From the NCBI RefSeq assembly GCF_003790525.1, contig NZ_CP033635.1: a stretch of DNA of 64,000 nucleotides; one strand, 5' to 3'. Of the stretch, positions 37,150 to 43,426 are shown one piece after another. Every line of letters begins with the position of its first letter. Within the stretch, counting starts at the first letter, position 1. A model generated the notes under the pieces. The model ran no database searches. It saw only the letters and a program-made list of their open reading frames with translations, and was not told where the DNA came from. The position numbers and the translations under genes were made by a program. The stretch comes from Escherichia coli (lineage in GTDB: Bacteria > Pseudomonadota > Gammaproteobacteria > Enterobacterales > Enterobacteriaceae).

Positions 37150-37205
37150 TTATTGTCAGGCTCTGATCACAGAGCCTGACATCTCCGTAATATCTTTTTG
37201 AAGTC

Positions 37206-40346
<3,141 letters not shown>

Positions 40347-40398
40347 TTATCCTTAAGAGTGTAATAATTTCCTCCAGCTATCGCACTGGAGGAAAAAA

Positions 40399-40716
40399 TC
40401 AGGCATGGAGCTCTTTTCTTAATGAAATGATTTCCCTGGCTAAATCCTGGCATAATATTGCATTCATCAAATGATCCTGTGCATGTACCAGAATGAGATT
40501 AACTTTTATTTTGCCACAGCCTTCATCCTGACTAATTAACGCGGTCTGAATCTTATGCGCCTGAAGACAGGCGGATTCAGAACTGGCCATTAGCTGAGTT
40601 GCGCCCTGCCAGTCTTTTTGCCCGGCACAACGTATGGCTTCCATCGCATCAGAACGGGCCTGTCCTGCGTTGACCAGTAACTCCATAACAAGTTCTTCAT
40701 CTGCAAACATCAACAT
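40399..40716 (-). CDS. PTS lactose/cellobiose-family EIIA component
   Basis: 105-aa ORF with conserved His motif (LVHAQDHLM) typical of ChbA-type EIIA. Confidence 0.8.
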   Translation of the reverse strand: MLMFADEELVMELLVNAGQARSDAMEAIRCAGQKDWQGATQLMASSESACLQAHKIQTALISQDEGCGKIKVNLILVHAQDHLMNAILCQDLAREIISLRKELHA

Positions 40717-40737
40717 CTCCTTCCTGTGTAAATGGCA

Positions 40738-42060
40738 TTATCCGTTAGTTGTTAAGTTATTGACCTTGTTGGCGGCAATAACAAAAGGTAAATAGATCAT
40801 TGTCGCCACACCTAAACATAAAAAACCCACCAGTAACGCCAGCCAGTTTCCCCCGGTTCCGAGGAAAGCAATTAAAGGTCCGGGCGTAGTCCAGGGCACG
40901 GCATAAGCAACCGGTGGAATAATTTCCATCGAAACAAAGAAGTAACCAATGGCACAGTTAACAATAGGAACCATAATAAACGGCACCATCATGATGGGGT
41001 TAAGTACAATAGGAAGGCCGAACATTATCGGTTCATTGATATTGAAAATACCGGGGATAAATGACATTTTTGCCAGATCACGGTATTCCGCACGCTTAGA
41101 AGCGATAAAAATAGCCAACAATAACCCCAACGTCATACCTGAACCGCCGCAGTTGGCGAATGCATCATTAATAGAAGTCCAGGTAATCGGATATGGCGCG
41201 CCCCAGGTAGTGCCGTGTTGAGCGGCCCAGGAGAGATTCTCCAGATTAGCCTCAGAAAAAACAGTTTCTCGAATTGCCGAGGTGGTATTAGGTCCGTGGA
41301 TCCCCAGCACCCACAGGAAATTACCCACAGCCCCCAGGATAATTACCGCAAAGATATTCGTTCCCATATGTTTGAGCGGCGTCTGGATTAATGTGTAAAT
41401 GAGGTCGTTTAATCCTGCCGGGGATATCAGTGTCAGGCAATAATTAAGTGCGGAAAAGAACACCATGACAAAAAATATTGGCAATAAAACTTTAAATGAA
41501 CGCGCTACCGCAGGAGGTACAGCTGCCGGCATCGTGATGGTGATTTTGGGGTTTCGAGCTAAGCGACAAAATATTTCACTGGTGATCAGTGCAACGATAA
41601 CAGCAACAAATAACCCCTGCGCGCCGAGATATTTGGTCGTCAGGAATGCTTGCCCATCTATCATCTGATATGGCGTATATACAATAAAAAATGCTCCTAT
41701 TGCCGTTAATCCGCATAAAAGATCATCTTGCTCATAGCTAATCGCCATATTCCTGGCGACCAGGAAAGCAATCATAATTGACATGATATTTACAGAACCA
41801 TTCATTACCGGAGTAAAAATAGCTTGTGCTTTTTCAAGGTTGGGGAAAACGCTGTTCAGATGCAGCAGCCCGGCAATAAAGCCGTCGGGCGATAATATGG
41901 CAAAGTTAATTAATATAATTAATGAGCTTGCCATGATAATTGGAAACGTAAAAACGAATCCATCTCTCACCGCTGCAACATGTTTTTGTGAGTTTAACTT
42001 GATAGCAACTGGAACAAGAAAACGTTCCATTCCACGTTCGAATGAGGCCATTAATCCCAT
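40738..42060 (-). CDS. PTS lactose/cellobiose-family EIIC permease
   Basis: 440-aa polytopic membrane ORF, ChbC/CelB-like. Confidence 0.8.
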   Translation of the reverse strand: MGLMASFERGMERFLVPVAIKLNSQKHVAAVRDGFVFTFPIIMASSLIILINFAILSPDGFIAGLLHLNSVFPNLEKAQAIFTPVMNGSVNIMSIMIAFLVARNMAISYEQDDLLCGLTAIGAFFIVYTPYQMIDGQAFLTTKYLGAQGLFVAVIVALITSEIFCRLARNPKITITMPAAVPPAVARSFKVLLPIFFVMVFFSALNYCLTLISPAGLNDLIYTLIQTPLKHMGTNIFAVIILGAVGNFLWVLGIHGPNTTSAIRETVFSEANLENLSWAAQHGTTWGAPYPITWTSINDAFANCGGSGMTLGLLLAIFIASKRAEYRDLAKMSFIPGIFNINEPIMFGLPIVLNPIMMVPFIMVPIVNCAIGYFFVSMEIIPPVAYAVPWTTPGPLIAFLGTGGNWLALLVGFLCLGVATMIYLPFVIAANKVNNLTTNG

Positions 42061-42173
42061 TTTTTATACCTGTTGTTTTGGATATTTATACATCCCAATA
42101 AAGCATGTATGCCATATCCATTTTATGATGTGTGAAAAGTTAGTTCAGGTAATAGTTTAATAAAATTAGATTC

Positions 42174-42485
42174 TTACTGTTGCAGTAGTTTCATCGCAAA
42201 TTCAAGAACTGCCTGTCCGTTCATGGTGCCATAGTCTTTCATCTCGATAACAGCTACAGGCATTTTCCCCTGTGCAACAGCTTCAATCTCTGGTTTCTGA
42301 AAGCGAACTTGCGGGCCAAGTAAAACAACGTCAACTTCGTTATTTTTAATTTTCCCTTTAGCCTCTGCAATCGCCAATGCGGAAATATTAACTTCAAGTG
42401 AAATAGCGTTAGCATGATCAATCATACGTTTAACCAGCATACTGGTTGACATGCCCGCAGCGCAAACTAACAATATCTTTTTCAT
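42174..42485 (-). CDS. PTS lactose/cellobiose-family EIIB component
   Basis: 103-aa ORF with N-terminal active-site Cys motif (LLVCAAGMSTS). Confidence 0.8.
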   Translation of the reverse strand: MKKILLVCAAGMSTSMLVKRMIDHANAISLEVNISALAIAEAKGKIKNNEVDVVLLGPQVRFQKPEIEAVAQGKMPVAVIEMKDYGTMNGQAVLEFAMKLLQQ

Positions 42486-42683
42486 ATTTTCCCTTACTGG
42501 TATATAACAGATTACATTGTGTAAATATCATATCCCGCAGTAGCTATACGTCCTGGTACATTGATCACAGTAATACAGCACTAAAGTTGTTCAACATCAG
42601 GGTGATAATTAAACGACTCGGCCATAGGATAAACCAATCAGGACTCAACTCCTTGTTTTCAATGGCTCTTAAAAGGTGCAAAA

Positions 42684-43382
42684 GTGATTTTTCAAAAGAT
42701 TGCCCGCTTACTTAAATCCGAGATCAATGGCTATTCATGGCATGTTGGTGATTTGTTGCCGTCAGAAGCTGAACTCGCTGTTCGTTATAATGTTTCGCGT
42801 AATACCCTGCGTAAGGCATTATCCTTGCTGGAAGGCGAAGGAATTATTCATAGAAAGCATGGTTCAGGAACATACATTCAAAAAAAGAATTTTGTTGCAC
42901 ACATTGATCACATGAACAGTTTCAGTGAAATTGCGCATAAAAGCGGCAAAGAGGCAGGGAGTCAGATTATGAAATTTGAAGTGCAGGATGCTTCTCCCCC
43001 TATTGCGACTGAGCTGAATTTAGTGACTGGTGAGCAGGTTTATTACATAAAGAGACTGCGATTCATTGAGGATAATGCAGCACAATTAGAAGAAACGTGG
43101 ATGTCAGTGGCACGTTTTCCTGATTTAACCGTAGCACATATGCAAAAATCCAAATTTTCGTATATTGAGAACGAATGCGGGATCAAAATCATTGGCACCT
43201 TTGAAACTTTCTCCCCGACTTTTCCTACCCCAGAAATCGCCAGTATTTTACGGATCAGCCCACGGGATCCCATACTTAAAATTCAGACCCAGGCTGTGGA
43301 CAGTAACTCTATTCCGCTGGATTATTCGTTACTTTACAGCAATATTTTCGAGTTCCAGGTAAAGTACTTTTTCCCGCGATAA
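42684..43382 (+). CDS. GntR/HutC-family transcriptional regulator (UTRA effector domain)
   Basis: 232-codon ORF from GTG with N-terminal GntR HTH (ELAVRYNVSRNTLRKAL); divergent from the PTS genes. Confidence 0.75.
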   Translation: MIFQKIARLLKSEINGYSWHVGDLLPSEAELAVRYNVSRNTLRKALSLLEGEGIIHRKHGSGTYIQKKNFVAHIDHMNSFSEIAHKSGKEAGSQIMKFEVQDASPPIATELNLVTGEQVYYIKRLRFIEDNAAQLEETWMSVARFPDLTVAHMQKSKFSYIENECGIKIIGTFETFSPTFPTPEIASILRISPRDPILKIQTQAVDSNSIPLDYSLLYSNIFEFQVKYFFPR

Positions 43383-43426
43383 AAGCAGACGCACAGAGTG
43401 CTGGCATCACATTCTGTGCGTATGGT

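Follow-up and report, generated by a model that had tools for sequence, protein, structure and literature searches.

The bgc island and its divergent spacer

The window, by which we mean the whole 64,000-nucleotide stretch of Escherichia coli DNA that was analyzed, contains a sugar-PTS operon and a regulator gene that diverge from a short spacer (Table 1). This spacer is bounded by the ATG of the IIB open reading frame (42485, minus strand) and the GTG of the GntR-type open reading frame (42684). The IIB gene, bgcE, is the first gene of the operon bgcE-F-I-H-A (37206-42485, minus strand). According to Pfam, NCBIfam and the RefSeq annotation of strain SMS-3-5, the encoded products follow the order IIB-IIC-IIA-porin-phospho-beta-glucosidase, and the gene of the GntR-type regulator, bgcR, is divergent. 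A sequence-only reading of this DNA had taken the spacer for the control region of a PTS IIB gene and a divergent GntR regulator gene, and this was borne out by the open reading frames, the Pfam domains and the RefSeq annotation. When ~1.3 kb around the spacer was compared, the locus was 100% identical to that of E. coli SMS-3-5, and 2551 out of 5426 complete E. coli genomes carried the 1.3-kb sequence.

The bgc island is located between marB and eamA. K-12 is without the island and has just 30 bp at the marB-eamA position; the extent of the island is therefore ~37150-43426 (6.3 kb). Its G+C content is 42.8%, compared with 47-49% in the flanks. The island replaces the 30-bp spacer of K-12, including the shared terminator hairpin, and is bordered by new hairpins at 37153-37185 and ~43388-43422. 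The 3' end of eamA in the window is not as in K-12. The island is accessory, being present in only a part of the E. coli population, and E. albertii has an orthologous locus (L002). It is common in extraintestinal pathogenic E. coli.

The locus is the already described E. coli bgc beta-glucoside (cellobiose) operon with bgcR, in another strain. Neelakanta, Sankar and Schnetz (2009) reportedly described bgcEFIHA and bgcR in septicemic and uropathogenic E. coli. Species, gene set and gene order are the same, and no difference from the locus in the window is known. Their study is reported to have shown that bgc expression is CRP-dependent and that a single promoter-up point mutation, bgc*, leads to BgcR-independent expression. 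In PMC3585215, BgcR is cited as the positive regulator of the bgc operon, and PMC4488073 counts bgc as one of the cryptic E. coli operons for beta-glucosides.

The spacer was compared across genera in a scan of one genome per species. BgcR homologues were 86% identical in E. albertii, 72% in Citrobacter, 69% in Salmonella diarizonae, 56-60% in Kluyvera, Raoultella, Cedecea and Buttiauxella, and 40-44% in Erwinia; the solved structures nearest to BgcR are NagR/YvoA, YydK and DasR. The residues SRNTLRKA of the recognition helix are near-invariant across orthologues, and a conserved operator is therefore expected. The scan yielded 21 orthologous loci in which the IIB and regulator genes diverge in the same way from a spacer 186-200 bp long, and eight further loci with the regulator gene beside bgcF or bgcA. 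In an alignment of 22 orthologous spacers, information content was calculated with sequence weighting; the spacer mean was 0.82 bits per position.

Table 1. Genes, predicted sites and named motifs at the bgc locus (positions in the window)
Feature	Position	Strand	Remarks
bgcE-bgcR divergent intergenic control region	42486-42683		198 bp, 37% G+C
bgcE, PTS lactose/cellobiose-family IIB	42174-42485	minus	Pfam PF02302; RefSeq annotation of SMS-3-5
IIC	40738-42060	minus	same operon as bgcE; Pfam/NCBIfam
IIA	40399-40716	minus	same operon as bgcE; Pfam/NCBIfam
LamB-type porin	38670-40343	minus	same operon as bgcE; Pfam/NCBIfam
GH1 6-phospho-beta-glucosidase	37206-38651	minus	same operon as bgcE; Pfam/NCBIfam
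bgcR, GntR/HutC-subfamily regulator	42684-43382	plus	GTG start; GntR wHTH PF00392 and UTRA PF07702
Predicted bgcE promoter -10, TATGAT	42527-42532 (42532 to 42527)	minus	conserved columns
CRP-like site	42551-42572		core TGGTA-CATTGA-TCACA 42554-42569, centre 42561.5; conservation
Candidate BgcR half-site 1, AGTTGTTCAACAT	42585-42597	plus	core GTTCA 42589-42593, ~-71; conservation, matrix
Candidate BgcR half-site 2, AGTCGTTTAATTA	42606-42618	minus	plus-strand core TAAAC 42610-42614, ~-92; conservation, matrix
Conserved block E, TTGTTTTCAA	42653-42662		T42654, T42657 and A42662 invariant; 1.45 bits per position
Candidate half-site 3, AAAGGTGCAAAAG	42672-42684	plus	overlaps bgcR Shine-Dalgarno and GTG start
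Near-palindrome TTACA-TTG-TGTAA, TTACATTGTGTAA	42512-42524		sequence-only reading; spans predicted transcription start
TGGTATATA	42498-42506		sequence-only reading
TGGTACA	42554-42560		sequence-only reading
CTGGTATATAACAG, includes TGGTATATA	42497-42510		14-bp near-palindrome, 6/7 pairs; in predicted 5' UTR

Predicted bgcE promoter and CRP-like site

The 22-spacer alignment showed A42527 and T42531 to be invariant and A42532 to be at least 90% conserved. On the minus strand, these columns correspond to T6, A2 and T1, respectively, of the hexamer TATGAT. Across loci, a TCACA sequence was anywhere from 77 to 220 nt away from the gene start, yet 27 of 29 loci had a minus-strand TAnnnT 33-38 nt to its left. 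Therefore, the hexamer is tied to TCACA and not to the gene start. From the conserved -10, we infer that bgcE transcription starts near 42520 on the minus strand, which would give a 5' UTR of ~35 nt. The -35 position reads CAGGAC and is not usable as a -35.

The TCACA sequence (42565-42569) and G42563 were invariant in 22 of 22 sequences, and the surrounding block GATCACAGT had a mean of 1.73 bits per position. The stretch GATCACA agrees with the CRP 22-mer consensus at positions 13-19. TGGTA-N6-TCACA matches 8 of the 10 core consensus positions for CRP, with one perfect half; by chance, a match of this quality would occur 0.07 times per 198 bp. The partner half TGGTA is weak (3/5) and loosely conserved as TGnnA in most loci; it reads TGTTA in seven loci from five lineages, and Rouxiella also has TGTTA. 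Exactly 18 bp separate the -10 from the 22-mer's end. Relative to the start predicted from this -10, the centre of the CRP-like site would be at -41.5, which fits class II geometry.

This arrangement is reminiscent of class II CRP promoters with an upstream activator, such as galP1 in its geometry and melAB with MelR plus CRP. Like these, the bgc spacer would have a CRP-like site centred at -41.5; this site has one perfect TGTGA half, there is no usable -35, and candidate sites of a second regulator are immediately upstream. Unlike in these promoters, the second half of the site is weak (3/5), and the start and the binding of CRP are predictions here.

The sequence TATCATA (42526-42532) fits the symmetric motif TAnnnTA, with overlapping -10 hexamers on both strands. 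Symmetric bidirectional promoters with TAnnnTA were reportedly described by Warman et al. (2021). Since the plus-strand -10 TATCAT (42526-42531) is as good as the minus-strand hexamer, the promoter could fire both ways. It could thereby supply the bgcR transcript, with starts 18 bp apart at ~42520 (minus) and ~42538 (plus). The bgc sequence resembles the symmetric promoters in the overlap of its -10 hexamers but differs in that only the minus-strand hexamer is widely conserved: it is present in 27 of 29 loci, whereas T1 of the plus-strand hexamer is kept in only approximately half of the loci. By itself, TAnnnTA has a chance expectation of 0.43 occurrences per 198 bp. A consensus promoter scan of the spacer was uninformative, giving two plus-strand matches versus 1.7 expected. 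The scan match ATAACA-16-TATCAT, which overlaps TGGTATATAACAG and the minus-strand -10, was kept only as a possible promoter in the opposite direction.

Candidate BgcR half-sites

Two further blocks of the alignment, C and D, carry invariant positions that mirror each other, GT..A (42589-42593) and T..AC (42610-42614), and reach 1.31 and 1.50 bits per position, respectively. The invariant columns are G42589, T42590 and A42593 in half-site 1 and T42610, A42613 and C42614 in half-site 2. A 13-nt half-site matrix was trained without Escherichia; the pattern used to gather the training half-sites fixed some core positions by construction. With this matrix, half-site 1 scored 12.6 bits and half-site 2 scored 10.9 bits (0.02 and 0.03 such matches expected per 198 bp, respectively). 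The core spacing of GTTCA-N16-TAAAC (42589-42614) was N16 in 41 of 41 related regions. Exactly one instance of GTKYA-N15-17-TRNAC was present in 40 of the 41 regions, always with N16; the remaining region, that of Superficieibacter, keeps this spacing but has GGAAC. TCACA and the core of half-site 1 were 23-24 nt apart. In Yersinia, Rouxiella and Pseudocitrobacter, GTTCn-N16-(T/A)GAAC was also found upstream of paralogous regulators with 47-50% identity whose genes neighbour different sugar genes.

GTTCA-N16-TAAAC is an inverted pair of half-sites that adjoins the regulator gene and is conserved across orthologues, and we consider it the best candidate for the BgcR operator. It adjoins the CRP-like site on the upstream side, a position in keeping with the role of BgcR as a reported activator. 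The half-site A-(G/C)-(A/T)-(G/T)-G-T-(T/G)-C-A resembles the dre half-site ACTGGTCTA of NagR and DasR. BgcR shares its domain architecture with NagR/YvoA, DasR (dre box ACTGGTCTAGACCACT) and GmuR/BguR (AAATGTATAGACATTT), among which are its closest solved relatives. As in operators of the dre/GmuR type, the bgc half-site has GGT/GT followed by a pyrimidine-rich pair and A, and the operator of a sugar-PTS operon adjoins the regulator gene. In contrast, the known HutC sites are contiguous palindromes of 16-19 bp bound by repressors. The bgc repeat is not a contiguous 16-19 bp palindrome as in dre/NagR sites: its cores are 16 nt apart, its half-sites are separated by 21 bp from centre to centre, and the protein is a reported activator. 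Also unlike dre/GmuR sites, the bgc module has further half-sites in direct repeat, 86 and 97 bp away.

The right half-site is degenerate in Escherichia, which has TAAAC (window 42611) versus TGAAC in most other loci. In E. coli 82.0311, a urinary isolate (L084), 1 bp is deleted right after the TAAAC core (TTAAAC-ACTC; equivalent to window position 42615). Several other interpretations of these blocks were rejected. Blocks C and D cannot serve as -35 and -10 on either strand, as 11-nt spacers or the partner hexamers do not fit. A local palindrome at half-site 1, GTTGTTCAACATC, was not conserved outside Escherichia and K. ascorbata, and a GGTATA repeat of the NanR type was present in a single copy only.

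Half-site 3 scored 6.9 bits, with 0.20 such matches expected per 198 bp. It is located at the conserved offset of +86/87, at which the non-coding second copies of the module (see below) carry an invariant AGGTTCAAAAG. An autoregulatory operator had been proposed from the sequence alone; this idea did not hold for the motifs named at that time, and it may apply to half-site 3, which covers the bgcR ribosome-binding site and is a possible autoregulatory site. Since the ribosome-binding site occupies the same position, half-site 3 could be conserved in first copies without any protein binding to the DNA there. In first copies, the half-sites at +86/87 and +97/98 fall on the Shine-Dalgarno sequence and the first codons of bgcR (GTG GTT TAY CAG), and the Shine-Dalgarno block reached 1.75 bits per position in the 22-spacer alignment. 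E. coli reads GTG ATT TTT CAA and has no half-site 4 (window 42683-42695); Escherichia is without this fourth half-site because its BgcR starts with MIFQ and not MVYQ.

Block E, which reads TTGTTTTnAAA in other genera, was conserved as well as the operator half-sites. When compared with a canonical -10, the half-site matrix and a conserved hairpin, it fitted none of them. We rejected block E as an extended -10 of bgcR (TGn-TTTCAA), as it has T and not A at the conserved second position, and also rejected a hairpin around it that would sequester the Shine-Dalgarno sequence, as this hairpin was not conserved. An Rfam search of 42300-42900 for structured RNA gave no match.

In Cedecea, Buttiauxella, Ewingella and one Klebsiella species, bgcA lies downstream of bgcR, often with a ROK kinase gene before it. 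There, the bgcR-bgcA spacer repeats the entire module, oriented as in the first copy. Second copies were seen in L013, L021, L025 and L029 (each at 4697-5000), in L020 (4697-4972) and in seven more loci. They consist of TCACA and GTTCA-type half-sites at offsets 0 (plus), 21 (minus), 86 (plus) and 97 (plus), and a conserved -35 TTGCCT and -10 TAAGAT begin 19 nt after the last half-site. With a promoter at this distance, the tandem pair would therefore be centred at ~-69 and ~-58, a classical activator position. A duplication that took in the bgcR ribosome-binding site and first codons seems to have given rise to the second copy. A conserved leader peptide was not found in second copies, where the small open reading frame has 27 codons in Cedecea and two in Buttiauxella.

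The geometry of the module is fixed. From TCACA to the bgcR start, the distance was 117-119 bp in the enterobacterial loci, with Erwinia (109-110 bp) as the exception, and ~40 bp in the middle of this segment are without sequence conservation. A segment that is fixed in length, with ~40 bp that are not fixed in sequence, argues for helical-phase or looping constraints. The half-site offsets of 21, 86-87 and 97-98 bp are all on one helical face.

An orphan bgcR-like gene was detected in Kluyvera cryocrescens (L007:330-662). There, the bgcE side, the -10 and TCACA are lost, and half-sites 1-4 and block E are kept. This suggests that TCACA goes with the leftward promoter and the half-sites go with the regulator.

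The second copies bear on the assignment of the TCACA block. They retain TCACA ~180 bp upstream of their promoter, too distant for classical CRP action, and TCACA could therefore belong to a BgcR array. According to this alternative, GATCACAGT would not be a CRP site but part of an array for BgcR (or another local factor), and CRP would act elsewhere or indirectly. In 12 second copies, GATCACAGT is indeed kept 23-24 nt from half-site 1 without a promoter at class I or class II distance, and the partner half, weakly conserved in first copies, is not conserved in second copies. We nevertheless regard this alternative as unlikely. GATCACA fits the CRP consensus, a TGnnA partner is found in most first copies (TGTTA in seven loci), and the -10 is exactly 18 bp away from where the 22-mer ends. 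K. cryocrescens has lost TCACA together with the bgcE side yet retains half-sites 1-4. The reported CRP dependence of bgc also counts against it.

Less likely still is an alternative for the split repeat, namely, that GTTCA-N16-TGAAC is bound by another factor or is structural (phased A-tracts, bent DNA) and that the BgcR operator is elsewhere. Its arrangement is unlike that of known HutC operators, and A-tracts are present beside both cores in many genera. Moreover, second copies carry a tandem GGTTCA-N5-TGTTCA similar to the direct-repeat boxes of response regulators, such as the PhoP box TGTTTA-N5-TGTTTA. However, bgcR-like genes are accompanied by the repeat in different genera, genomic contexts and target operons, and this holds for the paralogues of 47-50% identity as well. 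Its half-site, written as A-n-(T/A)-(G/T)-G-T-(T/G)-C-A, resembles the dre half-site, and no other strong match was found within the island. BgcR remains the favored candidate for binding to the split repeat.

Named motifs and proposed model

The sequence-only reading had named the near-palindrome TTACA-TTG-TGTAA, TGGTATATA and TGGTACA as candidate GntR/HutC-type operators. All three strings are present in the spacer, but they were at chance level in comparison with dinucleotide-preserving shuffles of the 198-bp spacer, of which 2000 were made (500 in the case of the direct repeat). Of perfect 5+5 inverted repeats whose arms are 0-10 nt apart, one was observed versus 2.43 expected, and at least one was present in 86% of the shuffles; with the spacer fixed at 3 nt, such a repeat was present in 20%. 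The 14-bp near-palindrome CTGGTATATAACAG (6/7 pairs) was equalled or bettered in 28% of the shuffles. For the direct repeat CTGGTATAT/CTGGTACAT (8/9), one pair was observed versus 2.25 expected. Matches to the HutC core GTnTAnAC with at least 5/6 positions occurred three times in the spacer versus 1.4 times expected, and at least three were present in 15% of the shuffles.

Conservation across orthologous islands had been proposed as a check in the same reading. We performed it, and the named motifs failed. In the 22-spacer alignment, TTACATTGTGTAA had 0.61 bits per position and ranked 126th of 186 among 13-nt windows. The TGGTATATAACAG window ranked 138th of 186, and CTGGTATATAACAG/TGGTATATAACAG, with 0.55 bits per position, were below the spacer mean. 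The palindrome TTACATTGTGTAA is broken in E. albertii, which has TTAAATTTCATAA. Within E. coli, both of its arms are polymorphic (CTACA..., T42512C; ...TTTAA, G42521T), with no compensating change. E. coli and E. albertii do not differ in TGGTATATAACAG (42498-42510), and the outer base of the 14-mer, C42497, is replaced by A in E. albertii. CTGGTATATAACAG is conserved in Escherichia only; Salmonella and Citrobacter retain part of it, and other genera lack it. With the half-site matrix trained without Escherichia, TGGTATATA scored 2.3 bits and TGGTACA scored -0.1 bits, values for which ~1.3 and ~2.9 matches, respectively, are expected per 198 bp.

The palindrome at 42512-42524 is best read as a chance feature that, on this reading, would simply span the predicted transcription start. 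TGGTATATAACAG would be an AU-rich 5' UTR stretch specific to Escherichia, just ahead of the bgcE Shine-Dalgarno sequence AAGGGA, and TGGTACA would be the weak half of the CRP-like site. The palindrome and the TGGTA elements are outside the conserved design. Operator-like sites for the regulator, which had been anticipated in the spacer, are indicated by the comparative data at positions other than these motifs.

It is very improbable that BgcR binds the palindrome TTACA-N3-TGTAA and/or TGGTATATA and TGGTACA as HutC-type operators and autoregulates the divergent pair from there. In favor of such binding, the strings do exist, and TGGTATA and TGGTACA are each one core position off the conserved half-site TGGT(T/G)(C/T)A. 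TGGTATA also resembles HutC half-sites, for example TGGTCT of the dre box; TGGTATATAACAG is the same in E. coli and E. albertii; and the palindrome overlaps the predicted start at a position suited to repression. These points are outweighed by the chance-level occurrence, the conservation ranks, the broken and polymorphic palindrome and the poor matrix scores described above. In addition, the DNA-binding helix is near-invariant, yet the named motifs are missing from other genera. Finally, BgcR is reported as an activator in PMC3585215, and a site at +1 to +22 is at odds with that role.

On balance, we favor a model in which the bgc regulatory spacer combines a -10, a class II CRP-like site and a split BgcR operator upstream of it; judged from sequence comparison, this model is rather probable as a whole. 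The operon bgcEFIHA would be read leftwards from the -10 TATGAT, with no usable -35 and a start near 42520. The CRP-like site (TGTGATCAATGTACCA on the minus strand) at -41.5 would supply the missing -35 function in a class II manner. BgcR would bind immediately upstream of CRP at AGTTGTTCA-N16-TAAACGACT, with the cores at 42589-42593 (~-71) and 42610-42614 (~-92), and would act as an activator there. A further candidate half-site is located 86-87 bp away (42672-42684), over the bgcR ribosome-binding site. The helical face shared by all these sites suggests a complex that is looped or of higher order, and autoregulation of bgcR would be possible. More tentatively, and with somewhat less than even confidence, we propose that BgcR-type HutC regulators use an operator design that is undescribed for the subfamily. 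It would comprise four phased half-sites and a CRP site that support a looped or higher-order activating complex at the promoter of a leftward operon, with a duplicated copy serving a second operon in other genera.

The locus is the published bgc island and is not new in itself. What the analysis contributes is a correction: motifs picked from a single sequence were chance features, and comparative footprinting yielded a concrete promoter map. If the operator assignment holds, an activating regulator of the HutC family would have an atypical binding-site geometry. In that case, the degenerate TAAAC and the missing half-site 4 may be part of the reason why E. coli expresses bgc poorly ("cryptic" expression).
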